Shown: piece by piece, positions 3,618 to 44,734 of the stretch
Numbering within the stretch: the first letter of the stretch is position 1
Layout: each line of letters begins with the position of its first letter
Assembly (NCBI GenBank): GCA_964648205.1
Contig: CAZYNT010000001.1
Coordinates: forward strand, 47,765-111,764
Direction: 5' to 3'
Length of the DNA stretch: 64,000 nucleotides
From: an uncultured Gammaproteobacteria bacterium
GTDB lineage: Bacteria > Patescibacteriota > Patescibacteriia > Patescibacteriales > UBA12465
The notes under the pieces: generated by a model
What the model was told of the DNA's origin: nothing
Seen by the model: the letters and a program-made list of their open reading frames with translations, nothing else
Database searches by the model: none
Made by a program: the position numbers and the translations under genes

Positions 3618-3992
3618 TTATTTTACAGCTAAAATCAGGACGCGAACCAAACCATAGGAAGCGAAAATAATTACCAAGCCGATGGCTGACCAAATTATAA
3701 TATCGCGCCCTTTTTTAATTTTTTCCGCGCTGCCGCCGGATATCATCCAGGTTAGTCCCCCATAAATAAACATCAACAAGGCGATTGAACCGACTACTCC
3801 TAAAACAGAATTGATTATTTTAGCAATTAAAAGCTGCGGAGTTTTTGTCTCTCCCAAGGGGTTTTCCAGACAAGTGGCACAGGGGGTTTTAGGCGAATTA
3901 GTATTCGAATTGCCCGGTGCCACATCTGCTAAAGCCAGAGAAAATGGAATTAATATCAAAGCTGAAAACGAAATAAATAAAAACTTTTTCAT
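3618..3992 (-). CDS. Small secreted two-TM protein with TrbC/VirB2 pilin-like architecture
   Basis: Signal peptide, a Cys pair (CATC), then two hydrophobic helices separated by a short GG..SAEKIKKGRD loop. This layout is typical of VirB2-like small proteins that are common in small-genome bacteria. Confidence 0.4.
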   Translation of the reverse strand: MKKFLFISFSALILIPFSLALADVAPGNSNTNSPKTPCATCLENPLGETKTPQLLIAKIINSVLGVVGSIALLMFIYGGLTWMISGGSAEKIKKGRDIIIWSAIGLVIIFASYGLVRVLILAVK

Positions 3993-17505: not shown

Positions 17506-19935
17506 CTAAGGATTAGTTGAGCTGCCTGTGTCCGGAGCAGAGCTTCCCTCTGCGGCGAGCGGCGGAATAGGCGGTTCTAGAGACGGCGTGCTTGAACCTA
17601 GAGACGAAGCTGGCGCGGAGGCGGATGTTCCGCCCTCGGAAACGCCCGCTTCGCCCGACAAAGGAGCCGGAACGGGGTTCGGAGCCGGAACGGGGTTCGG
17701 AGTAATAATATAATCGTTGCCGCCGCTTGTCAAAATCAAGCTTTTTACCGAACCAAGATCTTTCAGGCTGTTAATCTTTAAAAATTTGTTGGAAAAAGTA
17801 TAAAGATCGTCATTGATATACAAGCTGCGCTTGACTGTATTATCATAATAATTATATCCGCCCCAATAATCTGACCCGGAAAAATTCCCGCCCTCCGAAT
17901 GGTCTATTCCTCCCTTGAAAGTGAATTTATTGTTATCCGTATTGAAAACTAACGATCCGGCAAAGGAGATCCGCCCGTTCTCCCGCAGGACCGCCGGCAG
18001 CACTAATAAATTTTTCGCTTCCGAGTAAAGAAACGCCTTATGATCCTGCAAAGCAATTGAATCGCTCCCCGAATCGCCGAACATATATGAATCTAATTCT
18101 TTGGGCTTGTCCAGGTCAGTAAAATCAAACAGGGATATTTTTAAACCTTTTACCTTTACGCTGCCGCCCGCATCTTCTTCCGCGTCTCGCCCGAAGCCGA
18201 TTATTTTATTGCCATTTTTATCGGCTGGATGGAGATAATTTGAAAACCCGGGCAGCTTGATAGCGCCCAATACGCTCGGCTTAGCTGGATCGCTTAGGCT
18301 GATGGCATATAGCGGATCGGTCTTTTTGAAAGTTACCAGATAAAGCCGGTCTCCCATGAAGCGGGCCGCATAAATACGCTCCGTAGTCGCCAGATTCTCT
18401 AAACTGCCCACCACTTTCAATTCGCCATTTAAGATATATACATTACTGTAAGAATCTTCCGGCTTATCGGTCAGGCGCGACCATATAGGATTGCGGGTGG
18501 TGGCGATACGGAAATAATCGCCGTTTTCATCCATAGAAAATTGATTTAAAACCTGGCCGCTTACTTCTCCCATTCCCTTATACTCCACGCTTTTACCATT
18601 AATCGCAATCTTGTGGATGACGGTTTTCTCCATATTCTTGGCCTGCTCAATCAGCTTCTGCTTTAAAGCATCATCAAGGTTGGCTTGCAAATTTTTCTGG
18701 GCTTCTTCGCTCAAACTATTCAAATAGCGATCAATAATCGCCGCCACTTTCGCCTTCTTCTCGTTCTTAGCCAAGATGAAGTTGGCTGAAGCCTCAATCT
18801 TAGTGATTTTATCCTGATCATCGGCACTTAGCTGCGAAAAAACTATTTCCCTTTTCACGGTCTGTTCTAAATCATATTCATTAATATATTCCGTATAGGT
18901 AATATAAATATTGGACGGGGAAACGTAGAGATTCTGGCCGTAATTCATCAAATATGATTGGCCGTTAATGGCTTCGCCATTATCTTTGATGTTGATTGCG
19001 GTGACATTGGAAAAATTATACGAGTCGTATGGGATGTCAAAATAATAAACATCGGGCGCAAAGCATTTTTCAAACTGATCGCACGCATTTGATAAAACGA
19101 CCCCCTTATCCAAAACTCTGGGCAGAAGCGGCTCATTCTCAATATAATTAGCCGAGCTGTTAGTGAATAAATAAACGTAATCGCCGATTAAACGGGCGTC
19201 GGAATACGAGCCTTCAAAATCCAAATCGCGCGCTAATTTCGGGTCAGCCGGATTAGCCAAATCAAAAACCTTGAAAAAAGTATACGGATTTTGGCGGCGG
19301 AAGCTTCGATATGTCTCCATGGCGTAAATCTGCTGGTCGGCCCCGAAAACAACCAAGCTGGAGCCGCTTATAAAAATATCTTGCGGACGCGACTTGAAGG
19401 TAATCGTGCTCAAAACCGCAGACTCCGTGGCGGGGTTAACTTTTATTATCTTTAATTCATTGCGCACGAGCGCATAAATATAATTGCCGTCTGTTTTAAT
19501 AATATCAGCTTCATCAACGCCGGCGACTTGGTTGTTGGTTGTCGAATAGTCGTTTGCCGCCGATGCTTCCAAACTACCAGTTCCCGCGCTGGCGCTGCTT
19601 TCAGATATAGCGGAATCAGCCGTCGGCGCCATGGTGGATGTTAAGGCTTTAGTCGAAAAACTACCCGCTTGCTCGCGCATCACAATGTTGCCGCCGCTAC
19701 CTGAACTATTATTCTCTTCCAAAAAAGCTTTGAGTTCGTCATAATTCGCGAATTTCTTAATTTGTTTTGTGCTGGTCGCCGTTTCTTCTTCTTTAGCCTC
19801 TTCAATATTATTAGCGTCATTAACATTATTTAATGCATTATCGACCGTTTTCTTTTTCCAAGGAAGCGTGCATCCGCTTATTAAAACAGTTAAAACCGCT
19901 AGAACTAGGGTTAATTTAAATATTTTTTTTAACAT
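17506..19935 (-). CDS. Secreted lipoprotein with a beta-propeller-like domain and a Pro/Ser/Ala-rich C-terminal tail
   Basis: Lipobox LISGCTL after the signal peptide. Repeated beta-strand blocks through ~650 aa. C-terminal PNPVPAPNPVPAP repeats and a Ser/Gly/Ala low-complexity tail. Confidence 0.55.
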   Translation of the reverse strand: MLKKIFKLTLVLAVLTVLISGCTLPWKKKTVDNALNNVNDANNIEEAKEEETATSTKQIKKFANYDELKAFLEENNSSGSGGNIVMREQAGSFSTKALTSTMAPTADSAISESSASAGTGSLEASAANDYSTTNNQVAGVDEADIIKTDGNYIYALVRNELKIIKVNPATESAVLSTITFKSRPQDIFISGSSLVVFGADQQIYAMETYRSFRRQNPYTFFKVFDLANPADPKLARDLDFEGSYSDARLIGDYVYLFTNSSANYIENEPLLPRVLDKGVVLSNACDQFEKCFAPDVYYFDIPYDSYNFSNVTAINIKDNGEAINGQSYLMNYGQNLYVSPSNIYITYTEYINEYDLEQTVKREIVFSQLSADDQDKITKIEASANFILAKNEKKAKVAAIIDRYLNSLSEEAQKNLQANLDDALKQKLIEQAKNMEKTVIHKIAINGKSVEYKGMGEVSGQVLNQFSMDENGDYFRIATTRNPIWSRLTDKPEDSYSNVYILNGELKVVGSLENLATTERIYAARFMGDRLYLVTFKKTDPLYAISLSDPAKPSVLGAIKLPGFSNYLHPADKNGNKIIGFGRDAEEDAGGSVKVKGLKISLFDFTDLDKPKELDSYMFGDSGSDSIALQDHKAFLYSEAKNLLVLPAVLRENGRISFAGSLVFNTDNNKFTFKGGIDHSEGGNFSGSDYWGGYNYYDNTVKRSLYINDDLYTFSNKFLKINSLKDLGSVKSLILTSGGNDYIITPNPVPAPNPVPAPLSGEAGVSEGGTSASAPASSLGSSTPSLEPPIPPLAAEGSSAPDTGSSTNP
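17666..17701. repeat. 18-bp perfect tandem duplication (AGCCGGAACGGGGTTCGG x2) inside the 3' end of the lipoprotein gene
   Basis: Read directly in the sequence. It encodes the PNPVPA repeat on the minus strand. Confidence 0.8.
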
Positions 19936-20029: not shown

Positions 20030-20728
20030 TTATTTTATTTCCACTTCTAACCCCACCGCTACGCGATCATAAATATATTGGGCCGGACCGATGCCTAAAC
20101 GGATACATCCGTGAGAAACCGGTTTTCCGAGATGGTCTGCGCCTTCGCGATAACCGCTGGGCCAAACCGGCAGTTCATGAATACCGAACTGGCCGCTACC
20201 CAAGCCAAGCCAAAAAGGCATCCATAACTTATAAGTTTTCGACCACGCTTTGGGAACTTTATTGACTATCTTAAACTTACCCTTTGGAGTCGGCATAGCC
20301 GGCTTTCCCGTAGATACAGGGGATTCTTTCCAGAGATTACCGGCGACATAATATTTTAATTTCTGATTTTTCAAATCAATTTCTAATTTTTGTGCTAACT
20401 TTTTAGTGGAACTCGACAGCGGATCATAAGCCCAATCAACTTCCAGACCGTCTTGCCATCCATCGCCATCCGAATCCGGGTTCAAAGGGTCGGTCTTAAA
20501 TTTTAATTCAAAATAATCGCTTAAGCCGTCCTTATCAACATCGCTCTTTGCCAATCTTATCTTCTCTGGATTGAAAGGAGAATAGCCGTTGCTTATTTCT
20601 TGAGTATTGTTATAGCCATCATTATCGGAATCAAGCGCTTCTTCGGCTCTAATCGGCGCGGCCATAAAAAAATAAATGAATAAAAGCAAAACCCCGTAAA
20701 TAATTGGTCCCTGTCTTTTGAGTCTCAT
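20030..20728 (-). CDS. L,D-transpeptidase (YkuD domain) with N-terminal calcium-binding DxDxDG-type repeats
   Basis: Signal peptide. DSDNDGYNN, DVDKDGLSDYFE and DSDGDGWQDGLEVDWAYDPL repeats. Catalytic HxG...SHGCIRL motif. Confidence 0.8.
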   Translation of the reverse strand: MRLKRQGPIIYGVLLLFIYFFMAAPIRAEEALDSDNDGYNNTQEISNGYSPFNPEKIRLAKSDVDKDGLSDYFELKFKTDPLNPDSDGDGWQDGLEVDWAYDPLSSSTKKLAQKLEIDLKNQKLKYYVAGNLWKESPVSTGKPAMPTPKGKFKIVNKVPKAWSKTYKLWMPFWLGLGSGQFGIHELPVWPSGYREGADHLGKPVSHGCIRLGIGPAQYIYDRVAVGLEVEIK

Positions 20729-22305
20729 ACTGATTTTCTTAATGAAAATTCACAGCCGCAAAACTTCTGTTGATAAATGCCCAGCTCCCTGGCCAAGTTC
20801 TGCGACTGGCGGTAACCATTATCTTTTTGAAAATCATCGTCCAAAAATTTTAAACCATTCGCGCCAGCCAGCTCATGGCCGATTCTTTTTATCGCCTCCG
20901 TATCCTTATAGGGGCTGACGAGCAGGCTGGTGCTGAAATAATCAAACTTGTTTAAGCGCGCCAACTCGGCCGTCTTGGCTAATCGGCCGCGATAGCAAAT
21001 CTGGCAGCGCGCCCCGCGCTCCGGAGATTCCTCATTCCCCTTGACTGTTTCCAGCCAAACCGCATGTTCATAGGGCTCAATCAGCAAGGGTATATTGAAT
21101 TTACGGGCGACTAATCTAACTGCCTCCAGCCGAAGATTATATTCGGCCAGCGAGCTTAAGTTGGAGTTATAAAAATACCAAGTCAGCTTATATTTAGGAA
21201 GCAGGCGCTCGCGGCTGATATACGCGCTGCAAGGCGCGCAGCAAACATGGAGAAGCAGAGATGGTTTTCTGTTTCGGCGATCCAAGAGCCAGAAAACGAT
21301 AACAATAATGAACATGACAGCCAGAAGCCCGATTAAGGCGAAAAATTTTCCTCGACTTTGCAAAAATAAGCCGCTTAAACCAAAAGCTAAAGAAAGGCTA
21401 TAAAAAATAAAAACCGTTTTCTTTTGTCCAAGCCCCAGCGCTAAGAGGCGGTGATGAAGATGCTTTCTGTCGGCGAACCGAAAAGGATTTTTCCCTTGAA
21501 AAAGGCGACGCAAAATTGTCCAGGCAACATCTAAAATCGGTATACCCATAATAAGCAGGGCAATGGCAATCTTACCACCGGAGATAATTGCCAGCACTCC
21601 TAATATATAGCCCAAGAGAAGAGCCCCCCCCTCGCCTAAGAATATTTTTGCCGGATGCCAATTAAAAATCAAAAAGCCTATTGCCGATCCGACCAAAGTA
21701 ATGGCGGCGAAAGCAATATCTGGCTGATAATAGCGGGTCGTCAAAGTAAACAAAAAAATCACCAAGCCGCCGATAGCGGCGACCCCTGAAACCAAGCCGT
21801 CGACGCCGTCAAGAAGCTTGGTTGTATACATCATGCCTAAAAGCCAGGCGGCAATCAGTATGGGGCCGACGACAATCAGCGACTTTAAATAAACATAACC
21901 CCCAAAAGGGTTGGTTATCTTTTCAATTTCCACCCCTCCTAAAATTAAAATCAAGACGGCTAATAAAGGAAAAATAATCTGCCGGCTGGGCCGCAAATTA
22001 TATTTATCATCAAGCGCGCCGCCGATAATAATAACCAAGGCGCCGACAAAAAAGGCGATTAAATGCGACCAATGCAGATTGCCGGACAAGAAGCGGGAGG
22101 CGAAAGCGAACAATAGAATAAAATAAGCAATAAAAATAGCGACGCCGCCCAAAAGCGGAGTCGCGGTCGTATGTATCTTTCGGCTCGCGCCGCCAGCTGT
22201 GTCCGGACGATCAACAATGTCTAGCTTCAAAGCAACTCTCTTCACTAAAAAAGTGAGGACGGCCGCTAAAATTAAACTAGCCAAGAAAATAAGAAAGTAA
22301 AACAT
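20725..22305 (-). CDS. Fusion: family-4 glycosyltransferase (WecA/MraY-type polyprenyl-phosphate HexNAc-1-P transferase, ~340 aa) joined in frame to a QueH-like (DUF208, epoxyqueuosine reductase) domain (~185 aa)
   Basis: N-terminal part has 10 or more TM helices with the DDxxN and LDGVDGL motifs of MraY/WecA. C-terminal part begins LLLHVCCAPCS and ends ...CGCEFS, which I recognise as the cysteine signature of DUF208/QueH. No stop lies between them. Confidence 0.65.
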   Translation of the reverse strand: MFYFLIFLASLILAAVLTFLVKRVALKLDIVDRPDTAGGASRKIHTTATPLLGGVAIFIAYFILLFAFASRFLSGNLHWSHLIAFFVGALVIIIGGALDDKYNLRPSRQIIFPLLAVLILILGGVEIEKITNPFGGYVYLKSLIVVGPILIAAWLLGMMYTTKLLDGVDGLVSGVAAIGGLVIFLFTLTTRYYQPDIAFAAITLVGSAIGFLIFNWHPAKIFLGEGGALLLGYILGVLAIISGGKIAIALLIMGIPILDVAWTILRRLFQGKNPFRFADRKHLHHRLLALGLGQKKTVFIFYSLSLAFGLSGLFLQSRGKFFALIGLLAVMFIIVIVFWLLDRRNRKPSLLLHVCCAPCSAYISRERLLPKYKLTWYFYNSNLSSLAEYNLRLEAVRLVARKFNIPLLIEPYEHAVWLETVKGNEESPERGARCQICYRGRLAKTAELARLNKFDYFSTSLLVSPYKDTEAIKRIGHELAGANGLKFLDDDFQKDNGYRQSQNLARELGIYQQKFCGCEFSLRKSV

Positions 22306-22322: not shown

Positions 22323-25019
22323 TTATAACTCAGCGGCCTTTTCAATTTCAATTTCCGCCCGCGAATTGATAATTACCGTATCCCGCCGCTTGAGTTCGCC
22401 GCTTAATATTTTGTTGGCGATGCTATCTTCAACTTTGTCTTGGAGCAAGCGCCGGAGCGGCCGGGCGCCGAATTTCGGATCGTAGCCCTCATGCGCGAGT
22501 ATGGCCGCACCGTCCTTATCCGCCTTAAGATTTATCCCTTTATCGCTTAAACCTTTTTTAATCTTCTTGAGCATCAACGTAGCAATCGCCAAAACATCCT
22601 TCTCGCTGAGCGGCTTGAAGACGATAATCCCGTCAAAACGATTAATGAGCTCGGGGCGCATATATTTATTCAATTGGTTGTCGATAAGCTCTTGCTTGAT
22701 AATATTAATATTTGCTTTAGCGCGAATCTGCTCCTGGATGTAAAGAGCGCCGATATTGGAGGTCGCGATAATGATCGATTCCGTGAAACTAATAGTTCTT
22801 CCCTGGCCGTCGGTTAAGCGGCCATCATCTAACAGCTGCAAAAACAGATTTAAAATATCAGGATGCGCCTTTTCGATTTCATCTAAAAGAATTAAGGAAA
22901 ACGGTTTTTTGCGGACGGCCTCGGTTAAATACCCCAAAGCGCCGTCGACGTCTCCAATCATTTTTCGGACGCTGTCCGGATACTGGTATTCGCTCATATC
23001 AACCCGAATCAAGTAATCTTCATCGCCGAAATAAACCTGACTGACCGCTTTAGCAAGCTCTGTTTTACCGACGCCGGTCGGACCGAGAAAAAGGAAGCTG
23101 GCAATCGGGCGTTTCCCTTCCTTGAGCTGAGCGCGGGCGCGGCGCAAGCTGGAGGCGACCGCCTTGACCGCCTCCTCTTGATCTACCAAGCGCTTATGAA
23201 TTTCTACCTCTAAATTTAATAACTTCTGGCTCTCGTCAACCGTAACTTTATTGGCGGGAATCCCGGTAATTTCACCAATAGCCGCCGCCACCTCTTCGCT
23301 GCCGCAAAAACATTTCGTCGGATCGTTTTGAAAATTTTTCGCTGCAATAAGCGCCGCTTTCTCGAGCAGATTAATCGCTTTAAGCGGCAAGAATTTATCA
23401 TGCAGATAGCGTTCAGACATTTTTACCGCCTGTTCTAAAGCGCCGTAAACAATATAGACGTCATACTTGGATTCTAAGAAACCGACCTTACTCTCAAGAA
23501 TCTGAATTGCTTCATTGAATTCTGGTTCTTTTATGCCGACGGTTGTTAAAACCGTGCCAAGCGATTTATTCTCTATATACTTAGAATAATTTTCCGTGGT
23601 CGCCGAAGCTAAGCACATTAAATGTTTGCGGCTTAGCGCCTCGGCCAAAACTTCCGATAAATCCAAGCTTTCTTGGCTGCCGGCGCTTATTCCAATCAAA
23701 TTTTCAATATTATCAATATATAAGATAATATTGCCGGAATGGTTGATTTCGCTGATTGCGGTCAATAGGCGTTCTTCCGCTTGAGCTGCATCAGCGCCGC
23801 TTACAAGGCGCGAAACATCAAGCTCGACTAAGCGCTTGTCCTTCAAAAAAGCGGGGACTCGTTCTTCAACCATCAGCTGTGCTAATCCGGTAATAATTGT
23901 GCTCTTGCCGACGCCGCTGGGGCCGACCAAAAGAACGCCGCTATGACCGCCGATGAAAGACTCGAAAATAGAATTGATTTCTTTCTGCCGGCCGACGCAG
24001 ATGTCGTTAGCTCCATATTTTGATTGGATGGTAACGTCGTGGGAAAAATGATCAAGGGTCGGCGTGGCAATGGCCGTATACGCGCGGTTCATGCCCGTAC
24101 CAGGCTTAAGAAGCGCTAATTTACGATATGATTTATAACTTGCCAGCATGCGGCGATTGACTCTGAACCATTCAACCGTGTTGACGATTTTATTATTATC
24201 AATCTCTAAATCATATAGAATTTCGGCCAAACGCGGATCTTTCTGATAGCAGAAGGAAATAAGGTTTAAAACGTCGACGCTATCTTGATTCAAATTATAA
24301 GCCTCGACAAAGGCCAATATTAAAACTTCTTCCAGATTTGGAGCCAATTTGCTTCGTCCGGAAAAACCATTATCTTGCGATTTAATTAAACGGCGATCGA
24401 CGAGTTCGACTAATTTTTTAGCATCAACATTAAGGCGGATGAAAAGGGTTTGTATCTCTTTAACTTTAAGCAATACACGAAAAAGATGGATAATGGTCAC
24501 TTCTGTTTGGCGCAACTTATTGGCCAAAAGATAAGCATCTTCCAGTGCTTTGCTCGCGACCGTGTTGTAGGCCTTAGAAACGTTATATTTTTTTGGCTTT
24601 TCTCTCTTCCTGACTTTGTCGGAAGTAAAATTCCGATAATCGATCTTTTTAAGAGCCGCGCGCGCCTCGCTCTTCTTATAAAACAGAAACAAATCAAACC
24701 ATAAAGAAAGCACAAAAACTAAAATGAGTGGATGACTCTTATTCCAGAAGACTAAAAAGCGCAAAGGATGAGCAGACAATGTTCCCCAATTATAGAAAAC
24801 CCATAAGCCGAAAGCGAGCCAACCGGCAAAAATAATGAGCCAGGTTAAAAATTCAAAAATTCTTTCCGTATTTTCTTTAGTGCGCTCAATCGCAATCACT
24901 GACTTTTTTAAAACCTTATCCCAATATAAAAATCTTCCCAGAAACCAAGCGCCAGGACGGGCGCTGCTTGAATCGGGGCTAAAGACAATTTCTTCAGGAT
25001 TTGTTTTTTCAATTACCAT
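22323..25019 (-). CDS. Membrane-anchored Clp/Hsp100-family AAA+ protein (two N-terminal TM helices, Clp_N repeats, degenerate D1 and intact D2, no ClpB-type middle domain)
   Basis: D1 Walker A GPSGVGKS but Walker B IILYIDNIEN (canonical is IDELH), and the arginine-finger region SLGTVLT in place of ALERRFQ. D2 Walker A GPTGVGKT, Walker B LILLDEIEKAHP and GARPLRR are intact. Start set at the internal Met MVIEKTNPEE (25019). The 86 codons upstream overlap the next gene and look non-coding. Confidence 0.8.
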   Translation of the reverse strand: MVIEKTNPEEIVFSPDSSSARPGAWFLGRFLYWDKVLKKSVIAIERTKENTERIFEFLTWLIIFAGWLAFGLWVFYNWGTLSAHPLRFLVFWNKSHPLILVFVLSLWFDLFLFYKKSEARAALKKIDYRNFTSDKVRKREKPKKYNVSKAYNTVASKALEDAYLLANKLRQTEVTIIHLFRVLLKVKEIQTLFIRLNVDAKKLVELVDRRLIKSQDNGFSGRSKLAPNLEEVLILAFVEAYNLNQDSVDVLNLISFCYQKDPRLAEILYDLEIDNNKIVNTVEWFRVNRRMLASYKSYRKLALLKPGTGMNRAYTAIATPTLDHFSHDVTIQSKYGANDICVGRQKEINSIFESFIGGHSGVLLVGPSGVGKSTIITGLAQLMVEERVPAFLKDKRLVELDVSRLVSGADAAQAEERLLTAISEINHSGNIILYIDNIENLIGISAGSQESLDLSEVLAEALSRKHLMCLASATTENYSKYIENKSLGTVLTTVGIKEPEFNEAIQILESKVGFLESKYDVYIVYGALEQAVKMSERYLHDKFLPLKAINLLEKAALIAAKNFQNDPTKCFCGSEEVAAAIGEITGIPANKVTVDESQKLLNLEVEIHKRLVDQEEAVKAVASSLRRARAQLKEGKRPIASFLFLGPTGVGKTELAKAVSQVYFGDEDYLIRVDMSEYQYPDSVRKMIGDVDGALGYLTEAVRKKPFSLILLDEIEKAHPDILNLFLQLLDDGRLTDGQGRTISFTESIIIATSNIGALYIQEQIRAKANINIIKQELIDNQLNKYMRPELINRFDGIIVFKPLSEKDVLAIATLMLKKIKKGLSDKGINLKADKDGAAILAHEGYDPKFGARPLRRLLQDKVEDSIANKILSGELKRRDTVIINSRAEIEIEKAAEL

Positions 25020-25027
25020 ATTATTGA

Positions 25028-25396
25028 TTATTTCAGTACTTGAAAAATAAAAGCGAAAATTAATAAAGGAGGCAAAGCCAGCCAAAAGATTATAACTATC
25101 AGGCAAACTGCCAGCCAAATAAGTAGCGCGAAGCCGCGAAAGATTACTTGCACCAGACGCACCAAGAAGCTTATCAGGCGACCGGCCCAATCCGACTGCC
25201 CGTACATAGGCACAAAAATATTTTTCGCCCAGACGGAGAACCCTAATGATTTTTCTTGATCGCGCCAAAAATTCCAAACATTTCTGACAAGGCGGCCGAA
25301 CCCGACGCTATACCACCAGAGAGGAAAATAAACCACTTCTAAAAGCAAGGAAACGATTATTTTTCCGCTATATGTAAGGAAATTGTGTTTAAACAT
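25028..25396 (-). CDS. Small polytopic membrane protein (122 aa), first gene of the Hsp100 paralog operon
   Basis: Trp-rich hydrophobic ORF. Its stop lies 8 nt before the proposed Hsp100 start. Confidence 0.5.
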   Translation of the reverse strand: MFKHNFLTYSGKIIVSLLLEVVYFPLWWYSVGFGRLVRNVWNFWRDQEKSLGFSVWAKNIFVPMYGQSDWAGRLISFLVRLVQVIFRGFALLIWLAVCLIVIIFWLALPPLLIFAFIFQVLK

Positions 25397-25558: not shown

Positions 25559-25585
25559 TTAGCAGTCTTAAACTAGGAGTGCTAA
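25559..25585 (+). promoter_or_regulatory. CIRCE-like inverted repeat (HrcA operator) immediately upstream of clpB
   Basis: TTAGCAGTC-N9-GAGTGCTAA versus the consensus TTAGCACTC-N9-GAGTGCTAA, one mismatch. The track's GTG start at 25579 lies inside this element. Confidence 0.7.
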
Positions 25586-25602
25586 AAATAATTATAAAAA
25601 AT

Positions 25603-28239
25603 ATGTTCAACAAATTTACTGATAAATCGCAAGAAGCTATCATTAATGCCCAAATAATCGCCTCTTCTTACGGCCAATCTAATATTGAGGCTCTCCATAT
25701 TTTACTCTCTCTGCTCCAGCAAAACGAAAGTTTGATTAAGCCGATACTCGAAAAAATGAAAATTGATCCGGAAATGATTGAAGATCTCACGATTAAGGAG
25801 CTGCAAAAGTTGCCACGCTTGAAAATCAACCCGACGAACGGCCCGGTTCAGGCTGTTTCGGGCACAGCTGAAACGGCCATTATTTTAGAGCGCGCGCAGA
25901 AAGAAGCGGATGGCATGAATGATGAATTTATTTCGACCGAACATATCCTGCTGGCTCTAATCGGCGTCCCTTCCCCGGCCCAAGCCGTTCTTCTCAGTTT
26001 TAAAGTAGAATATAAAAATATTAAAGAAATTTTAAAAGAGTTGCGCGGCGCGCAAACCATAAACGATCCTTACCCCGAAAACAAATACAAGGTCTTGGAA
26101 AAATATACGACCAATCTGACCGAACTGGCCCGCCAAGAGAAACTCGATCCGGTTATTGGCCGCGACTTGGAAATCCGCCGCATCATGCAGGTGCTTCTGC
26201 GCCGCACTAAAAATAATCCTGTCCTAATCGGTGAAGCCGGAACCGGCAAAACCGCCATCGTTGAGGGTCTAGCGCAAAGAATTATCGCCGGCGATGTACC
26301 GGAAAACCTGAAGAATAAGGAAGTCGTGACACTTGATTTGGGCGCTTTAGTAGCCGGGGCAAAATTCCGCGGCGAATTTGAAGACCGCCTTAAAGCCGTT
26401 CTTAAAGAAGTGAAATCGCAAAACGGACGAATCATTTTATTCATCGACGAGCTCCATACTTTAATCGGCGCGGGCGCTTCCGAAGGCTCGATGGACGCTT
26501 CAAATATGCTAAAACCGGCGTTAGCCCGCGGCGAACTGCGCACTATCGGCGCGACAACCACAAAAGAGTACCAAAAATATATTGAACGTGATGCCGCCTT
26601 GGAGAGACGTTTCCAGCCGATTATGGTTAACGAACCGAGCGTTGAAGATACTATCTCAATGCTCCGCGGACTTAAAGAAAAATATGAAGTCCATCATGGC
26701 GTCCGCATTACCGATAACGCGGTCATTGCCGCCGCTAAATTATCCAACCGCTATATCAGCGACCGTTTTTTGCCCGACAAGGCGGTGGACTTGATCGATG
26801 AAGCGACTTCATCGCTCCGTATGGAAATAGATTCGATGCCCGACGAGCTCGACCAGTTAAAACGCAAGATGAACCAGCTTGAATTAAACAAAGCCGGCAT
26901 CATGACAACTGATAAAAAATCCTCCCGGCTTAAAGCCGTCAACCAAGAGCTCGCGAGAATAAAAGAGAGGGCCAACCAGCTGGAACTGCACTGGAATAAT
27001 GAAAAAAATATCATTTCTCAAATCCGCAATTCAAAAAAAGAGATTGAAGATTTAAAAATCCGCGCCGAAATTACTCAGCGCCAAGGCGCCGATCTGACCG
27101 AAGTCGCGAAAATCAAATATGGCTTGATCCCGGAATTAGAAAATAAAATTAAGAAGCTCCAGGATGAATTGATAAAAATCCAAAAAAAAGGACAGCGTAT
27201 TCTAAAAGAAGAAGTTGACGAAGAAGATATTGCTAAAGTTATCGCCCGCTGGACCGGCATTCCGGTAAACCGGATGCTCCAAGATGAAATAACAAAACTG
27301 AGCGAAGCGGAAAATAAGCTGGGCGAAGAGGTGGTCGGGCAAGAAGAAGCAATCAAGGCCGTAGCTAATGCTCTACGCCGCAGCCGCGCCGGCATTAATG
27401 AAGAAAAAAAACCGATCGGATCATTTTTATTTGTCGGACCGACCGGCGTCGGAAAAACTGAACTCGCCAAGGCCCTGGCCACTTTTATGTTCGACGATGA
27501 AAAAGCTCTTATCCGCTTGGACATGAGTGAATTTATGGAGAAGCATTCGGTCGCCAAGCTGATCGGTTCTCCCCCCGGCTATGTCGGACATGACGACGGC
27601 GGCCAATTAACCGATAAGGTGCGGCGGCACCCCTATAGCGTCGTCCTCTTTGACGAAATCGAAAAGGCAAATCCTGATATGTTCAATGTGCTCCTCCAAA
27701 TTCTTGACGATGGACGGCTGACCGATTCTAAAGGACGAACCGTTAATTTTAAAAATACGATTATTATCATGACTTCTAATCTCGGCAATGAAGTTATTAA
27801 ACAGTATTCCATCGGCTTCGCCGATGAGAGCGACAAACAGGCGGCGGCGAAAATGCGCACCGGTGAGATGAAAGAAAAAATCGATAAAATTTTAAAAAAT
27901 CATTTCAAATTAGAATTCCTCAACCGAATCGATGAAATCGTCCTCTTTAGAAGCTTGTCGGGGGCGGCGCTGGAAAAAATTGTCGATCTTGAATTGTTAA
28001 AAGTAGAAAAACGCCTTCATAATAAAAATATCGCGCTCCGCATCAGTCCCAAAGTAAAAAAACTGCTTGCCGAAAAGGGCTATGATATTACTTATGGCGC
28101 CCGCCCCTTGAAGCGCATCATCCAAACCATGATTCTTGATGAACTCGCTTTAGAGATTATAGAAGGCAAAGTTAAAGAGGGCGATAAAGTAAGAATTGAA
28201 CTAGAAGACAAAGAAAAAGTTCTCATCCGTGTTAATTAA
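25603..28239 (+). CDS. clpB: Chaperone ClpB (Hsp104/ClpB disaggregase with coiled-coil middle domain)
   Basis: Start set at ATG 25603 ([13 protein letters not shown]). Both AAA modules have intact Walker A/B ([24 protein letters not shown]). A long coiled-coil M-domain lies between D1 and D2. Confidence 0.95.
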
Positions 28240-33766: not shown

Positions 33767-34420
33767 TTATTTCTCTAAAATTAATTCTCCGTTTTTAAGT
33801 GCTTGATCATGAGAGGGACAAGTTGGCCATGGGCGATCCAATACATCTTCAGAATCAAAAAGGAATATGAAACAATCACCAGGAGGAACTTTGCCGTAAT
33901 TATTTGTTAAAATATAATCCTTATCTTTCCAAATAATTCGTGAATAAATAGACCACGGATCAGTCCCAGTCTCAACTCGATGATGTATAACATGAAGACT
34001 AGCCTCTTTGCCATTGCACATATCCCCGGGATGAAACTCACGCACACCCTTCTCGGTTTGCAGATAAAGATTAGATTTATAGTCTGGCGCGTATTCTATA
34101 ATACTACTACCAATTGCCTCAAAAAATGAACTTAATAAAACATACTCATTATTTATAACAAAACCGTCGGCAATAACACTGCCTGATTTACTATGCGCGA
34201 ACAGACCGCCCCTTTTTGTTTTAAGAGCTTCTTCATCTACTTTTAAAAAAATCTCCTCACCACAAGCAAATATACGATAATCAACTCTTGATAAAAGTCT
34301 TTCCATTCCTTTGCTTTTCTCTTTATTTTTTAATACAAAAAATATACTTATGAAAATAATTAATACCGCCAAAAAGCATAAAATCCCAAATTTATAAATA
34401 TGGTTTTTTATTAATTTCAT
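33767..34420 (-). CDS. Hypothetical membrane-anchored protein (single N-terminal TM, extracytoplasmic domain); possible immunity-like partner of the upstream gene
   Basis: 217 aa with N-terminal hydrophobic helix FGILCFLAVLIIFISIFFVL. The start is 3 nt after the upstream gene's stop. Confidence 0.45.
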   Translation of the reverse strand: MKLIKNHIYKFGILCFLAVLIIFISIFFVLKNKEKSKGMERLLSRVDYRIFACGEEIFLKVDEEALKTKRGGLFAHSKSGSVIADGFVINNEYVLLSSFFEAIGSSIIEYAPDYKSNLYLQTEKGVREFHPGDMCNGKEASLHVIHHRVETGTDPWSIYSRIIWKDKDYILTNNYGKVPPGDCFIFLFDSEDVLDRPWPTCPSHDQALKNGELILEK

Positions 34421-34422
34421 AT

Positions 34423-35382
34423 TTAATCAATAACTTCAAGCTCGCCCACGCTTAGAAAATCTCCTTTGCGCGCTTTGATTAATTTATCATAGATCTCATT
34501 CCATTTTTCAATTTCAATTATTGTGATACAGCCAAGCGAAACTCTGCCTGTATGTAAATATCTTTCTCCTTCATGCCCGATTCTAAACCAACTCATCGCC
34601 CTCAGTGCCCTCTTCTCATAATTCCGTCCTTTAGGATGCGGATAATCAGGCAATTCAATGTCATACCAACCTTTTTCCCATGGCGATTCAGGATAATCTG
34701 TAACTTGATATTTTTTATTACCAATAATCAGTTTCTTTTGAGAGGTGGAATATTGCAGATGAATTAAAGACTCATGCTTTACGTCTATTAAAAGACGGGA
34801 ATTACCATTGTTTAGGCTGACAGAGGCTTTTTGATTTTTATATAAACCCTCTAACACCATAAAATATTCCCGCCCGCTTTCAATATATTCTGATTGTACT
34901 TTTAAAAAGGCGGGAAGAGAAACCGTCTCACCACCCGTTATCTTAACTTTAAGCCAGCCATTATCAACATCAGGGATATATCTTACCGTTTTCGTAACCA
35001 AAGCTTCAATCGTAACTTCAAAAAGAGCGGCGGACTTGCCCCACGTCTTGCCAAAACGATTTTCACGAAGTTCAATATTATAGGTGAAATTTTGCTGCTT
35101 AACGTTATCCGTATCAACTTTAATTATCTTTTCTATTTTTCCGATATCGTTAAATAATATATCTTTTTCTAAAACGATGATTTTTACTTTGGCAGAAAAT
35201 GTTTTCTGGTCAGAAGAAAAATCGCCTATCACTTGATTAAATTCGGCGGTTTTTCTATCCCGCATCCTTTTATCAGCGTGAAAAATTTTATCCAATAATT
35301 CTATATCAATATGGATGTCGTTGCCAATTGATTTACCTGTATATTTTATTTTTATAAGTTTGAATTGAATTTTTTTAAGCAT
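34423..35382 (-). CDS. Hypothetical protein with a C-terminal L,D-transpeptidase-like (YkuD/Tlde1-like) His...Cys motif
   Basis: No signal peptide. C-terminal FRIGHEGERYLHTGRVSLGCITI resembles the YkuD catalytic segment (compare IHGT...SHGCIRM) in both spacing and residues. Confidence 0.45.
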   Translation of the reverse strand: MLKKIQFKLIKIKYTGKSIGNDIHIDIELLDKIFHADKRMRDRKTAEFNQVIGDFSSDQKTFSAKVKIIVLEKDILFNDIGKIEKIIKVDTDNVKQQNFTYNIELRENRFGKTWGKSAALFEVTIEALVTKTVRYIPDVDNGWLKVKITGGETVSLPAFLKVQSEYIESGREYFMVLEGLYKNQKASVSLNNGNSRLLIDVKHESLIHLQYSTSQKKLIIGNKKYQVTDYPESPWEKGWYDIELPDYPHPKGRNYEKRALRAMSWFRIGHEGERYLHTGRVSLGCITIIEIEKWNEIYDKLIKARKGDFLSVGELEVID

Positions 35383-35392
35383 ACAGATTTTT

Positions 35393-35872
35393 TTAAATTT
35401 TTAATACATCTTGCTCATTTAATATCGACTTCAGCTCCTTGACTTTTATCAACAGAGTTTTAGCGTCTGCATGGGCTTGGTGTAATTCTGCTTCTGAAAT
35501 TCCGATAAAATCACCATATTCGATTCTATTTCTTTTCTTTCTCATTTGCTGAAATCTTTGAAACTCATTACCGAGTTCGCCATTAAGGAAGACGGCGGCG
35601 GCATTAATTACAATATAATGATGACCCTCTCCACTTGCTTTTACTCTATATCCGTTAATTAACAATATGGCTTCACAGCCTAATCTTATAGAATCGTAGA
35701 TATTATTGTACACAATGTCCTCGTCCCCGGTGCCTAATCCGGACAAGTTTTTATTTGCAAAATTATATAATCTATCAGCCTTCTCGATTTTTATTTCAAC
35801 CCCCTTTAAATTGGGTAAAAAAGGCTCAATGGAATTATTACTTAATAATGTTTGAATCTCTTGTAAAATCAT
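35393..35872 (-). CDS. HEPN-like helical protein (putative toxin partner of the upstream nucleotidyltransferase)
   Basis: 159 aa, predicted all-helical. Overlaps the upstream NTase gene by 35 nt. The canonical Rx4-6H motif is not clearly present (KRNRIEYG), so the assignment rests on the gene pairing. Confidence 0.4.
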   Translation of the reverse strand: MILQEIQTLLSNNSIEPFLPNLKGVEIKIEKADRLYNFANKNLSGLGTGDEDIVYNNIYDSIRLGCEAILLINGYRVKASGEGHHYIVINAAAVFLNGELGNEFQRFQQMRKKRNRIEYGDFIGISEAELHQAHADAKTLLIKVKELKSILNEQDVLKI

Positions 35873-36425
35873 ATGGATCCCCTTTTAATTTAATTATTGG
35901 TGATAAGAATATATTAGATATAAAATTATTTTTTTCTTTAATCTTTTTAATAATTTCCTGACTACTGTAAATATGATAATTTATTTCTCTGGCAATTTTG
36001 CCCTCTATAGAACTTACCATGATAGTAAGGGCCTCTTGATCGATGTTTCCAATTAACATTAAATCAATATCGCTATTATTATTTTCCGTTCCTCTGGCTA
36101 TTGATCCGAAAATAAAAGCGCATTCCACATTATCAAGTTTATCGATTAACTTTTTTAGTTCATTTTCTAAGCCGCTTGTTTTCGAAATAATGCTTTTTAT
36201 TTCTTCATAAAGTGGGTGTTCTTTATTTAATCTAAAAAAACGCATATTTCCGCGACGTTCATCTAATAAGATTTTATCATCCACCAAATTATCTAAATAT
36301 TTTTGATAATGACTCGGCTCTTTTTTTAGATTTTTAGCAATTTCTCTAAAATAATATTCTTTTTTTGAGTCTTCAAAAAAAAGCTTAAGGATTTCCCCTT
36401 CCCCGTTTTTTAAAAAATTTAGCAT
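35838..36425 (-). CDS. Winged-helix HTH plus minimal nucleotidyltransferase (MNT, Pol-beta superfamily) protein, putative antitoxin/regulator
   Basis: N-terminal HTH-like region (YYFREIAKNLKKEPSHYQKYLDNLVDDKIL) and NTase motif FGSIARGTENNNSDIDLMLIG. Confidence 0.7.
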   Translation of the reverse strand: MLNFLKNGEGEILKLFFEDSKKEYYFREIAKNLKKEPSHYQKYLDNLVDDKILLDERRGNMRFFRLNKEHPLYEEIKSIISKTSGLENELKKLIDKLDNVECAFIFGSIARGTENNNSDIDLMLIGNIDQEALTIMVSSIEGKIAREINYHIYSSQEIIKKIKEKNNFISNIFLSPIIKLKGDPYDFTRDSNIIK

Positions 36426-36473
36426 ATAGTATGTTTAATAATTTTTATTTCAATTATTCTTGATTATATTATA

Positions 36474-36512
36474 CATAATTTATGTACAATTGTACATACT
36501 TTATGTACATAA
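36474..36512. promoter_or_regulatory. Palindromic operator overlapping the promoter of the HTH-NTase operon
   Basis: Perfect 14-bp palindrome TGTACAATTGTACA flanked by further TATGTACA half-sites, about 50-90 nt upstream of the ATG. The minus strand has TATAAT adjacent. Confidence 0.55.
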
Positions 36513-36603
36513 GCTAATATTAGCCAACGATTACACACTTATTAAGAAAAATATATTATCTCAAAACTTTCCTCCACCTCTCAATTTCGCCCATATCCTA
36601 TAT

Positions 36604-38115
36604 TTATAACTCATACAAAAATATCATATAAGAGGTGCCTTCCAGGTGGCCTTTTTCTGTAAAGTTCTTCCGGAAGTCATTCTTTAAAGTCGCAGCAAAT
36701 GGATTATCTTCTGTAAAAACCAGCCAAACCCTCTTACTGCCAGATGATTTAATATTATTTATCAATACATCCGAGCTCGGAAATGTGTTGTTATTATTTT
36801 TAATAATCTTATTTACATCTTGGTAAAGTTGATGAGTAGCCATTTCTTCGGGGAATGACTTTTTTATAAAAAACTTAAGATTAATATTCATGCGACCTAT
36901 ATAATAATCAATCGTTGGCCTCGAAAGTCCGGTAAACACTAGCCAATCATTATCCTGGGCTATCGATAAAAAATTGGACACAACTGTCCGCTCATTAATT
37001 TTTTGGTTTTTGATGTTATTCTTTTCCCTAATTACCTCTGCATAACTAAAAATAATCAATAATAAAATTAAAGAGCAGACAATCCATTTATTTTTAAGAC
37101 GAGAAAACAATATGGCGAATAGAAGAATAAAAGCCGGCAAAACTACGGCCTCATAGCGCCCCGGCTCATAAAAATTTACAAAATGACCCACAATCCATGC
37201 CACCAACAATGGGATAAATAGGTAACCAAGCAACCATGATAAGTTGGAAATAATCTTATTATAATTAATTTTTTTTAACTTAAAATAGATTCTATCTTTT
37301 GTTTCTTCTAAGTAACCAAAAATAGCAAGAGCCGATATTAGACCAAATATTATATAAATTCCAGTAGCCCCGTACATAAAATAATGGAAAGTATCGAATA
37401 TTGTTTTAAATGATGTTAAAGAAATCCAGCTGCTTGCTCCATTTTCCCTATATTGCCACAAGATTACTATCCAGGGCGAACTAATAAATACGGCAGCAAT
37501 TTGGCAAAAGAGTATTTTAAAAGATTTTTTATAAAGCAGCCAGCTAATAAATTGGGATCCCAATAATAACAAGAACCAGGGATGAGAACAGACGCCTAAA
37601 ACAGTAAAAAACAAATACCAAATAACATTTTTATACCGAAAGTGCTTTAGTAAAATATAAAATTGAAAATACGAAAGAATGCTCAGTAGTATGACCAATG
37701 AATACTGCCTGGCTTGAATAGAATAGAAAATACTAAAATAATTTATTGCCAGTAAAAAGGCCGCCCATAGGCCGGTACGCACACCTCTAATTAATACTCC
37801 GAGTTTATAAATTGCTATAAGTGAAAGCAAGCTTAAAATTACAGATAAAGAACGGAGTCCGATCTCATTATTTCCAAATAAAACCGACCAAAATTTTAAT
37901 AAATAAAAGTAAGCGACATTGCTGCCAGAATTAACCAAATTGGACCACGAGTTAATCAAATTTGTATTAAGGGCATTGGCTACCCCAGCCTCATCTAGCC
38001 ACAATGGCCTTAAAGATAAATGATCTAATCGTAAAATACTGGCTAAGACAAAAATAGCTAAAAAAATTAAGACATTTCGATTCTTTTTTATTATCTTTCT
38101 TAAATTATTTACCAT
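36604..38115 (-). CDS. GT-C fold membrane glycosyltransferase (family 39/83-like, ArnT/PMT-type)
   Basis: 503 aa polytopic. N-terminal LRLDHLSLRPLWLDEAGVA matches the first-loop DE motif of PMT/ArnT-type transferases. Low GC. Confidence 0.55.
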   Translation of the reverse strand: MVNNLRKIIKKNRNVLIFLAIFVLASILRLDHLSLRPLWLDEAGVANALNTNLINSWSNLVNSGSNVAYFYLLKFWSVLFGNNEIGLRSLSVILSLLSLIAIYKLGVLIRGVRTGLWAAFLLAINYFSIFYSIQARQYSLVILLSILSYFQFYILLKHFRYKNVIWYLFFTVLGVCSHPWFLLLLGSQFISWLLYKKSFKILFCQIAAVFISSPWIVILWQYRENGASSWISLTSFKTIFDTFHYFMYGATGIYIIFGLISALAIFGYLEETKDRIYFKLKKINYNKIISNLSWLLGYLFIPLLVAWIVGHFVNFYEPGRYEAVVLPAFILLFAILFSRLKNKWIVCSLILLLIIFSYAEVIREKNNIKNQKINERTVVSNFLSIAQDNDWLVFTGLSRPTIDYYIGRMNINLKFFIKKSFPEEMATHQLYQDVNKIIKNNNNTFPSSDVLINNIKSSGSKRVWLVFTEDNPFAATLKNDFRKNFTEKGHLEGTSYMIFLYEL

Positions 38116-41694: not shown

Positions 41695-42360
41695 CTAAAA
41701 GAGCCAAAAACCAGAAATTTGAAAAACGACGAACGCAAAACCACCGCCACGACTCCACCGGTCGTCAGGATTGCCACAGTCGGCACTCAACCAAGAATCA
41801 TCGTCATCGCGATGAGCGTAGAGAAGTGAGAGATCACCTTCAAAATCTTTTATTGGTTCGTGCATAACGACAATCCAAAGAAGTCCCATAGCTTCCAGTT
41901 CTTTATCAGAGAATTTCTCTCTGATAAGACAAGCGGTTTCAGTGTTTGGCGTGATGAGCTTACGATTTTTAGCGTCCTTACGAATGTTTTGAGTGATAAG
42001 TTCGCTGTCACTGAAAATTTCATCTTTAAAAACGGCAATTTCGTAGGTGACACCGCTTGTCGGTTTAAATCTTTTTGAACGAAGTACGCTCTTAGCATAA
42101 TTTCCGACATGAAAACCCTTATCTTCCAAACGAGTAATCCACTGTTCGCCGGTAGTGCCGTCAGATGTGACCGAGAAACGGATAATGCCGTCTTTTTCTG
42201 TCCATTTAGGTCTGGGCGTGAAGAGCTGTATTTCTCCGGCGTTCACCATGCGGACAGCTTCATTGGGATCATTTACTCCGATTTGTTTCATGATGTTTTT
42301 CACCAAAGCATTTAGCTTACCCGGCAAAACATCGGCGATTACAAAAAAATCATTATTCAT
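41695..42360 (-). CDS. Hypothetical protein
   Basis: 221 aa with a strong AAGGAGGG ribosome-binding site. No motif recognised. Confidence 0.5.
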   Translation of the reverse strand: MNNDFFVIADVLPGKLNALVKNIMKQIGVNDPNEAVRMVNAGEIQLFTPRPKWTEKDGIIRFSVTSDGTTGEQWITRLEDKGFHVGNYAKSVLRSKRFKPTSGVTYEIAVFKDEIFSDSELITQNIRKDAKNRKLITPNTETACLIREKFSDKELEAMGLLWIVVMHEPIKDFEGDLSLLYAHRDDDDSWLSADCGNPDDRWSRGGGFAFVVFQISGFWLF

Positions 42361-42635
42361 TTTGCCCTCCTTGCGCTTATTCGCGCTTTTTACTTGCTCT
42401 CATCCGAAGCAGGAGCTCTAACCATTGTGGCCACAGCCAGGAAATGGCTAACTTGTTAACCATTTTTTGGCTGTGGCCTGTTCGCAAATTATTTTTTTAA
42501 AGTCCGATTTTTATAAGATAATTATAGCATAATATCATAATATTAATATTTTTTCAATAACAAAAAAATAGAGATATTAACTCTATTTTTCTGTATCTAC
42601 GGAGAGGATAGGGTGAAAACTTTTTTGTGTAAATA

Positions 42636-43427
42636 TTAGTATTTTTTAAAATATGGATGAAAAATTCTAAAACCATCTTTTTTGTCTAATTCGGATTTTA
42701 TAAAACTTTCTTTTATTTCTATTTCTCTAGCATTTAAAGGAGTTTCGCCCTTGTTCGCCCTTTTATTGAACCACCAAACACCAATATCGCGTTTATAGAT
42801 TGGTATTTTAAATATTTTTGCATATGTAGGTATTTTATATTCAAGCATTCCAATCTCCCTGTCTTCGACAGTTAACCATTTATCGAAAAAAATTCTTGGA
42901 AAGATTTGAAAAATAAATAAACTGCATAATAACCTATTTCTATAAGAATACTTTTCTTTTATATATTTTTTGAATTCAAGATAATTTTTTCTATGTTTTT
43001 TTCCTTTTTTTGTCCAATCCCATTTTTTTTCTATATACTCATCTAATATCCTTGTACCCGAAATAAACAATTCTCCTTTTTTCATCCTAGGAAATTGTTT
43101 TTTAATATTTCCCAATATTAAAGCGTCCCATTGAACTATAGCGACTCCATCCCAATTTTTTAAGTTTTGTCCCCTTTCTTTATACCAATCTAATATCATT
43201 AAATCCCCATGAATCCATTTATACTTACGTGGCTTGCTGCAAAGAGAGCTAACATGAAAATCATCCAAATAACTTTTTAATTTATTTTTAAAGCTACCAG
43301 CCTTTGCCTTATCTCCACCGTACAATCCAAAAATTTTGACATTCGGATTATGTTTTTTTATCAATTTAAGTCTATTCAAGCAAATTTCAGGGTCTTTGTA
43401 GAACCAAAACAAAATAGCTAACTTCAT
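42636..43427 (-). CDS. Hypothetical protein (very AT-rich gene, first of a low-GC cassette)
   Basis: 263 aa, Lys/Trp-rich. No recognised motif. Confidence 0.4.
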   Translation of the reverse strand: MKLAILFWFYKDPEICLNRLKLIKKHNPNVKIFGLYGGDKAKAGSFKNKLKSYLDDFHVSSLCSKPRKYKWIHGDLMILDWYKERGQNLKNWDGVAIVQWDALILGNIKKQFPRMKKGELFISGTRILDEYIEKKWDWTKKGKKHRKNYLEFKKYIKEKYSYRNRLLCSLFIFQIFPRIFFDKWLTVEDREIGMLEYKIPTYAKIFKIPIYKRDIGVWWFNKRANKGETPLNAREIEIKESFIKSELDKKDGFRIFHPYFKKY

Positions 43428-43432
43428 ATTGC

Positions 43433-43819
43433 TTAAAAACCGAAGTATTTTAAAACGGGTTTAATGTTTGGGGCCAAATCTTCTTTATCTAAATCTTGTA
43501 TATCTATCCAACGCCATTCTTTTATATCTTTACCTGGCATAATTTCTCCAATTCTTTTAGCCAGGAAATGAACCAAGATAACACTTAACCTTTCTTCTCC
43601 CTTTTCCGTATAGAAAAAATAGGGGTTATTATTTAGTATTTCTATATCTAGTCCCATCTCCTCCTTGACTTCTCTAATGGCAACTTCTTTTAAATTAGTT
43701 TCATCTTCTTCAACTCTTCCGCCACAAAATTTCCAAAATTGATCTTCACCATGTTTATTAAGTAAAACGTGATTATTTTCTACAATTACGGGACCGGATG
43801 CGATAATAATTTTAGACAT
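43433..43819 (-). CDS. NUDIX hydrolase
   Basis: Nudix box GGRVEEDETNLKEVAIREVKEEMGL. Confidence 0.8.
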   Translation of the reverse strand: MSKIIIASGPVIVENNHVLLNKHGEDQFWKFCGGRVEEDETNLKEVAIREVKEEMGLDIEILNNNPYFFYTEKGEERLSVILVHFLAKRIGEIMPGKDIKEWRWIDIQDLDKEDLAPNIKPVLKYFGF

Positions 43820-43898
43820 ATATTTTATAATTGCTATTTTACAATTATACCACGCCTTGCCGAAGCCATAAATTTCTTATTAAAAATAACTCGAAATC

Positions 43899-44732: not shown

Positions 44733-44734
44733 AA

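Follow-up and report, generated by a model that had tools for sequence, protein, structure and literature searches.

A 64-kb stretch of contig CAZYNT010000001.1 (assembly GCA_964648205.1; 64,000 nucleotides, referred to below as the window) was analysed around a single gene on the reverse strand, which encodes a polyprenyl-phosphate N-acetylhexosamine-1-phosphate (HexNAc-1-phosphate) transferase of the Glycos_transf_4 family (GT4) joined in frame to a QueH (DUF208) domain. The host is an ultra-small Patescibacteria/Falkowbacteria-like bacterium. The gene was originally predicted from the sequence as one uninterrupted 526-codon frame joining the transferase with QueH, and this was borne out by the open reading frame and by the DNA of the junction. 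The protein string across the junction is W-L-L-D-R-R-N-R-K-P-S-L-L-L-H-V-C-C, encoded by TGG CTC TTG GAT CGC CGA AAC AGA AAA CCA TCT CTG CTT CTC CAT GTT TGC TGC, which is unbroken in frame, stop-free and contains neither a homopolymer run nor an ambiguity. The Pfam search returned PF00953 in the N-terminal half and PF02677 in the C-terminal half, both far above their cutoffs as the domain calls of the original prediction required, and the motifs quoted with those calls were all located, with DDKYN at residues 99–103, LLDGVDGL at 164–171, LLLHVCCAPCS at 350–360 and CGCEFS at 516–521. Production of a free QueH from an internal start was considered and rejected, as the window junction contains no Met or alternative start.

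The transferase and QueH halves

The match to Glycos_transf_4 (PF00953) covered residues 83–242 with an E-value of 2e-28 and a score of 99.7 bits against a cutoff of 27. The nearest NCBIfam model was the WecA equivalog TIGR02380, which gave 112.9 bits, under its cutoff of 326, while the MraY equivalog TIGR00445 gave 62.1 bits, under a cutoff of 192. Judged on these sequence scores the GT4 half is a WecA-like member of the polyprenyl-phosphate HexNAc-1-phosphate transferase (PNPT) superfamily and an equivalog of neither WecA nor MraY, and because the scores are far under both equivalog cutoffs it is described here as a putative Patescibacteria-specific PNPT. The possibility that it is the MraY of the cell was rejected on the low TIGR00445 score and on the presence of 11 transmembrane (TM) helices instead of 10. 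The residues D99/D100, D166/D169 and H282/H284/H285 were invariant or nearly so across 63–113 homologs. The roles of the Asp-Asp Mg2+ site, the second Asp pair and the His-rich loop are presumed to be those of WecA and MraY, and the HLHH sequence resembles the WecA HIHH motif.

The QueH model PF02677 was matched at residues 350–523 over positions 1–174 of its 175, with an E-value of 9e-59 and a score of 199 bits against a cutoff of 23.5. The QueH of T. maritima (PDB id. 7LC5) was aligned end to end with the C-terminal half by phmmer with an E-value of 1.5e-28, and superposition of the predicted model on 7lc5 using Foldseek gave a target TM-score of 0.90, a root-mean-square deviation of 1.5 Å and 36% identity over 177 columns. 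The assignment of the LLLHVCCAPCS...CGCEFS domain to QueH/DUF208 therefore stands on the Pfam score, on phmmer and on Foldseek alike. The cysteine set CCxPC/D, CxxC and CxC is taken here to supply the ligands of a [4Fe-4S] cluster and an adjacent iron, roles that were reportedly described by Li and co-workers in 2021. The Cys found at the position of T. maritima D13, which gives the sequence CCAPC, is the majority form among 150 QueH representatives. Gln at position 512 occurs only in the subclade of the window itself, which comprises P0001, P0002 and P0005–P0009.

The AlphaFold2 model was calculated from 63 homologs and had a mean predicted local distance difference test score (pLDDT) of 84.8 and a predicted template modelling score (pTM) of 0.66, with a pLDDT of ~85–95 for the QueH domain. 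The 10 or more TM helices claimed originally were refined to 11, on which hydropathy and the AlphaFold2 model agreed, with the helix at residues 317–344 continuing into the strand at 349–354. Foldseek comparison of the GT4 half gave a target TM-score of 0.73–0.78 with MraY (6oyh) and ~0.65 with human DPAGT1. The loops that contain DDKYN, LLDGVDG, FLGEGG (residues 222–227) and HLHH were all placed on the K/R-rich cytoplasmic side by hydropathy and the positive-inside rule, and the last helix is followed by the sequence DRRNRKPS and then by the first strand of QueH. Because the K/R-rich loops bearing the catalytic motifs share a side with the C-terminus, the protein is predicted to have its N-terminus outside and its C-terminus in the cytoplasm, where QueH would be held on a very short tether. 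The coordinates of the gene, its parts and its neighbours are collected in Table 1.

Table 1. Features of the GT4-QueH gene and of the adjacent operon, in window coordinates.
Feature	Coordinates	Strand	Basis or remark
GT4-QueH fusion open reading frame, complete	20725..22305	(-)	ATG start, 526 codons and TGA at 20725-20727
GT4 half, residues 1-344, WecA/TagO-like PNPT (Glycos_transf_4), 11 TM	21274..22305	(-)	Pfam, NCBIfam, hydropathy, AlphaFold2, Foldseek
DDKYN, residues 99-103, Mg2+-binding Asp-Asp motif, cytoplasmic loop 2	21997..22011	(-)	D99 and D100 invariant in 63 homologs
LLDGVDG, residues 164-170, second catalytic Asp pair D166/D169, cytoplasmic loop 3	21796..21816	(-)	Invariant
HLHH, residues 282-285, basic cytoplasmic loop 5	21451..21462	(-)	H282 and H284 invariant
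TM11, residues 317-344, last helix, membrane anchor of the QueH domain	21274..21357	(-)	AlphaFold2 helix 317-344 and hydropathy
Junction/linker NRKP, residues 345-348, basic, ~4-8 residues long	21262..21273	(-)	Stop codon, 6 nt and new start here in relative L010
QueH half, residues 349-523, complete epoxyqueuosine reductase QueH (DUF208) domain, predicted cytoplasm-facing	20737..21261	(-)	Pfam, phmmer, Foldseek
CCAPC, C355/C356/C359 = T. maritima C9/C10/D13	21229..21243	(-)	Invariant in the fusion family
CQIC, C434/C437 = T. maritima C87/C90	20995..21006	(-)	Invariant
Q512, just before CxC	20770..20772	(-)	Arg in 112/120 fusion homologs and 135/144 QueH representatives (T. maritima R166)
CGC, C516/C518 = T. 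maritima C170/C172	20752..20760	(-)	Invariant
ATGA overlap of the GT4-QueH stop with the YkuD start, translational coupling	20725..20728	(-)	Read through in some relatives, giving triple fusions
Downstream operon partner, secreted/anchored TSP3-repeat and YkuD L,D-transpeptidase, 232 residues	20030..20728	(-)	Pfam, conserved synteny
Downstream co-directional Beta_propel (PF09826) protein	17506..19935	(-)	Directly after GT4 in L035 and L036
Upstream co-directional ClpC/ClpB-like AAA+ ATPase	22323..25277	(-)	ClpC-GT4 order kept even in outgroups

Gene boundaries in related genomes

Related genomes, in which the original prediction had proposed to look for the same fusion, were found to contain it. 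All of the best 120 protein clusters (62–100% identity; NCBI, JGI, ENA and Logan) carried PF00953 together with PF02677, and the identical 526-residue protein was present on 4 independent contigs (NCBI and Logan). A scan of species-representative genomes gave 80 loci, numbered with the prefix L, which were dissected by local tblastn, open reading frame maps and a neighbour-joining tree of the GT4 domain; fused GT4-QueH was present at 24 of these species-representative loci. The same gene with the same neighbours also occurs in the complete 977-kb Falkowbacteria genome CP066698.1. The ratio of nonsynonymous to synonymous substitution in the least saturated pairs was 0.04–0.05 for GT4 and ~0.07 for QueH, values that indicate strong purifying selection on each half.

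A sequencing or assembly error that erased a stop codon, or caused a frameshift joining two genes, might be suspected from the relatives L010, which has a stop at the junction, and L058, which has an apparent frameshift. The chance of such an artefact is negligible given the four contigs with an identical protein and the fusion in the best 120 clusters and 24 species representatives, to which may be added that the linker varies in length among relatives and yet keeps the frame, and that the window junction is clean. There is very little doubt that the in-frame fusion is real. The lost stop codon proposed in the original prediction is therefore retained as an evolutionary event, as indicated by the stop in L010 and by the unfused relatives, and discarded as an error of assembly, since the fusion is widespread. 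Stop codons at the junction, which were to count against the fusion, do occur in relatives but are confined to a nested minority subclade, and the fusion stands.

In the outgroups, which carry the labels Buchananbacteria, Kerfeldbacteria and Komeilibacteria, GT4 stands alone. In the sister clade a VanZ-QueH gene overlaps GT4 at L043 and L049, and separate VanZ and QueH genes follow GT4 at L040 and L055. The clade of the window has no VanZ, and nested among its 24 fused loci are 9 loci in which GT4 and QueH are separate genes. Three separate genes were found at 7 loci (L010, L029, L031–L034 and L048); at L010 an in-frame stop and 6 nt lie precisely at the position of the window junction, and at the remaining six the stand-alone QueH is 180–187 residues long, starts MKKLLLQICCAPC and has no anchor. 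QueH was fused to YkuD rather than to GT4 at L030 and L078, and both QueH and YkuD were deleted with GT4 kept at L035 and L036. Triple GT4-QueH-YkuD fusions form a monophyletic group (L018, L023 and L026), and the same arrangement was seen in P0047 and P0122. The conserved feature is consequently the gene order GT4, QueH, YkuD and not the position of the gene boundaries, and the fusion is evolutionarily labile.

The fused products in these relatives differ in size and make-up. The QueH-YkuD proteins are 412–421 residues long (L030:3751-5016 and L078:11047-12285) and the GT4-QueH-TSP3-YkuD triple fusions 731–794 residues; the set of proteins with these two architectures includes P0047, P0087, P0090, P0094, P0114, P0116 and P0122. 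In both architectures an Fe-S enzyme of the cytoplasm shares one chain with an L,D-transpeptidase that lies outside it, the former signal peptide of YkuD serving as an extra TM helix; in the triple fusions this is the twelfth, which keeps the topology consistent. Apparent frameshifts interrupt two genes that otherwise have the fused form, lying where QueH begins in L058 (L058:10001-11543) and in the N-terminus of GT4 in L013 (L013:10052-11592), and could be sequencing errors or recent pseudogenisation.

When the QueH domain alone was used in an exhaustive phmmer search, 3,891 representatives were obtained, of which the GT4 fusion collapses to ~3. Most of the best 150 of these were stand-alone proteins of ~180–210 residues. 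The fusion partners among the same 150 were VanZ (at least 18), RNase HII (3), UDG (3) and radical SAM (3), together with methyltransferases, the CCA-adding enzyme, Sua5 and Amidase_3. VanZ-QueH proteins of ~300–340 residues (P0125, P0126, P0128 and P0138; L043:11040-11981 and L049:11029-11937) were the most frequent architecture among the nearest QueH relatives. Since QueH fuses with many partners and the window also contains a thymidylate kinase-dUTPase fusion, gene fusion looks like a style of these genomes more than a special pairing.

Queuosine genes and the function of the fused protein

The gene for tRNA-guanine transglycosylase, tgt, was found 4–7 kb upstream of the orthologous GT4 at nine outgroup loci of related Patescibacteria (L060, L065, L070, L072, L073, L076, L077, L084 and L085). 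At L088:10001-12159 (CAZEKG010000001.1) the gene order is TGT-GT4-DUF192, with a 4-nt overlap between tgt and the orthologous WecA-like GT4. At the loci examined QueH occurred without tgt and tgt without QueH, and the two were never in the same locus. The linkage of tgt to the orthologous GT4 suggests an ancestral neighbourhood of the form tgt...GT4...queH, which favours a role for QueH in the queuosine pathway. The Tgt proteins of L060, L065, L070, L072, L073, L076 and L077 keep the catalytic motifs DSGGFQ, GGVAVGE and FDCVIPTR. The CxCxxC...H zinc site of the E. coli and Z. mobilis enzymes is apparently missing from the Tgt of these seven loci, where the consensus reads PINQTNLKxYSKAYLHHLF...LNNL.

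The explanation that accounts best for these data, and which is held with somewhat more confidence than doubt, is that neighbouring genes were fused by loss of a stop codon to give a bifunctional protein with independent activities, in which QueH would still act on tRNA to reduce epoxyqueuosine but would do so at the membrane surface. No new chemistry is likely to have come with the fusion. The starting point would have been an ancestral Patescibacteria gene string of ClpC-like, GT4, (VanZ), QueH, YkuD and Beta_propel genes, in which the stop codon and the short spacer between the adjacent, translationally coupled GT4 and QueH genes were lost. The GT4 half is predicted to transfer HexNAc-1-phosphate from a UDP-sugar to polyprenyl phosphate on the cytoplasmic side of the membrane, a reaction that would initiate the assembly of a lipid-linked envelope glycan. 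The last TM helix would exit to the cytoplasm and be followed, after ~4–8 basic residues, by a complete QueH with all seven metal-site cysteines, which most likely still converts epoxyqueuosine in tRNA to queuosine by an Fe-S-dependent reduction and would differ from the free enzyme in being tethered to the membrane. Independent activities are proposed because GT4 and QueH each occur widely without the other and close relatives keep two proteins, and continued action on tRNA because the sequence and fold of the domain are not separable from those of bona fide enzymes. We thus infer that neither activity depends mechanistically on the other, that epoxyqueuosine-tRNA (oQ-tRNA) is the substrate of QueH, and that the fusion was a near-neutral event in a compact genome.

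Several observations weigh against this explanation. Neither tgt nor queA was found in the window or in 10 kb of extra flank on one side, and tblastn searches with E. coli Tgt and QueA found neither gene within ~10 kb of 46 QueH-bearing loci (1.63 Mb). Searches with Tgt linked no fusion-bearing genome among the best 120 matches, the queries being distant from the fused clade, as reflected in the GT4 of P0377, which is only 47% identical to that of the window. The subclade of the window has Gln at position 512 where more than 90% of QueH proteins have Arg. QueH is tethered to the membrane in most arrangements, by GT4, by VanZ or by the signal anchor of YkuD, a pattern not expected from purely neutral change. 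The pTM of 0.66 is silent either way on contacts between the GT4 and QueH domains.

The frequency of tethering could be taken to mean that membrane attachment was itself selected, with QueH performing the canonical conversion of oQ to queuosine (Q) on tRNA and GT4, VanZ and the YkuD signal anchor serving as interchangeable anchors. Possible benefits would be access to an electron donor, Fe-S delivery or co-regulation with envelope synthesis. The fused (24), triple (3), QueH-YkuD (2) and VanZ-QueH (L043 and L049) loci all attach QueH to a TM segment, VanZ-QueH is the most frequent architecture among the nearest QueH representatives (at least 18 of the best 150), and where VanZ is absent QueH is attached straight to TM11 of GT4. 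Selection for the anchor nevertheless appears unlikely, as at least 7 species of the same clade, together with L040 and L055, encode a short, soluble and anchor-free QueH, and most of the best 150 QueH representatives are stand-alone proteins. A more radical alternative is that the Fe-S domain no longer acts on tRNA and was repurposed for the envelope pathway in which its operon partners work, where it would reduce an intermediate that is lipid-linked or a nucleotide sugar, or else regulate the transferase in response to redox or iron status. The persistent linkage of QueH to the envelope genes GT4, VanZ and YkuD, and to Amidase_3 in one representative, can be read in this way, as can the Q512 substitution, the absence of tgt and queA near the QueH loci and the absence of QueH from every locus with tgt near GT4. 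The negatives for tgt and queA, however, cover ~20 kb per genome and the best 120 Tgt matches only. A different substrate for the DUF208 domain, as raised in the original prediction, received no positive support: the sequence, metal ligands and fold of the domain are typical of QueH and indistinguishable from those of bona fide examples, and it is soluble and unfused in close relatives, deleted in L035 and L036 and joined to unrelated partners elsewhere. The set of nearest relatives includes fusions to tRNA enzymes (the CCA-adding enzyme and Sua5), L035, L036 and all outgroups have GT4 but no QueH, and QueH is widespread without GT4. Repurposing is accordingly considered improbable, and so is the more specific proposal, put forward as speculation, that the Falkowbacteria-like clade lost tgt and queA and kept the tethered QueH, co-expressed with the transferase and the L,D-transpeptidase, for a reductive or redox/iron-sensing role in assembly of the envelope.

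The fusion by stop-codon loss and its alternatives differ in their consequences. If the fusion genomes have tgt and queA, the protein would exemplify tRNA modification carried out at the surface of the membrane, and the clade would also offer a well-resolved series of neighbouring genes fusing and splitting in compact genomes. If they lack tgt and queA, the clade would be a clean natural case of the QueH fold with a non-tRNA role, and a role in the envelope, if true, would give the DUF208 fold a new function. GT4 and QueH are both well-known families, and the fusion proteins have already been deposited as 'QueH' or 'WecA-like' by pipeline annotation; that these deposited fusions are bifunctional is a caveat for annotation. 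There is also a wider pattern in Patescibacteria in which QueH is repeatedly tethered to envelope membrane proteins (GT4, VanZ and the YkuD anchor), and tgt and queH each abut the same WecA-like gene family in different lineages. Neither the tethering of QueH nor the linkage of tgt or queH to GT4 was found described in the literature searched, which also yielded no paper on GT4-QueH or VanZ-QueH fusions and nothing relevant on queuosine in Patescibacteria; the per-phylum tables of queuosine-pathway genes (supplements of the Bartonella and DPANN papers) contain no Falkowbacteria rows.

Remainder of the window and comparison with known systems

The window contains two divergent ClpB/ClpC-type double-AAA+ genes, at 22323-25277 (-) and 25579-28239 (+), and the pair is conserved in CP066698.1. 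The first of these, which adjoins the fusion, has a long atypical N-terminal region. The thymidylate kinase-dUTPase (Tmk-dUTPase) fusion is 399 residues long (61586-62785, (+)) and adjoins a dCMP deaminase, a thymidylate synthase and a DHFR-like gene, giving a compact cluster for dTTP synthesis. Two islands of low GC content, at 34001-38000 and 42001-46000, have a GC of 0.32–0.33, while the remainder of the window is at ~0.42. Most of their reading frames are unannotatable; the islands also contain a Polbeta-type nucleotidyltransferase, NUDIX, SDR, a TehB-like methyltransferase and GNAT, and may be acquired DNA. A small secreted protein at 3618-3992 (-) matches PF18895, a family of type IV secretion system pilins (E-value 5e-12).

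When the QueH half was compared with T. maritima QueH (7LC5, 7LC7 and 9DEU), the match extended over the full length at 36% identity, the Cys ligands were kept and the folds superposed. The fusion differs in that QueH is the C-terminal domain of an 11-TM protein, from which it is separated by a linker of only ~4–8 residues, and in having Cys at position 13, where T. maritima has Asp, and, in the subclade of the window, Q512 in place of the near-invariant Arg. The GT4 half resembles the WecA/TagO-type UDP-GlcNAc:undecaprenyl-phosphate GlcNAc-1-P transferases in its 11 TM helices, cytoplasmic C-terminus and DDxxN, LDGVDG and HxHH loop motifs, and its predicted fold is also that of MraY and DPAGT1. 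Unlike the WecA/TagO-type enzymes the fusion protein carries an extra soluble enzyme domain, and it falls below the equivalog cutoffs. Among Patescibacteria the species with split GT4, QueH and YkuD genes (L010, L029, L031–L034 and L048) have orthologues in the same order, 70–78% identical in GT4 and 59–64% in QueH, whereas their genes have a stop and a new start (MKKLLL... or MENIKPKLLL...) and their QueH is soluble. The VanZ-QueH proteins (P0125, P0126 and P0128; L043 and L049) are the nearest QueH relatives at 44–51% identity and likewise have QueH C-terminal to a membrane domain after a basic linker, and their gene lies directly downstream of the orthologous GT4 gene, which it overlaps. 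The anchor in these proteins is a VanZ-like domain of 3–4 TM helices, while in the clade of the window QueH is joined to GT4 itself.

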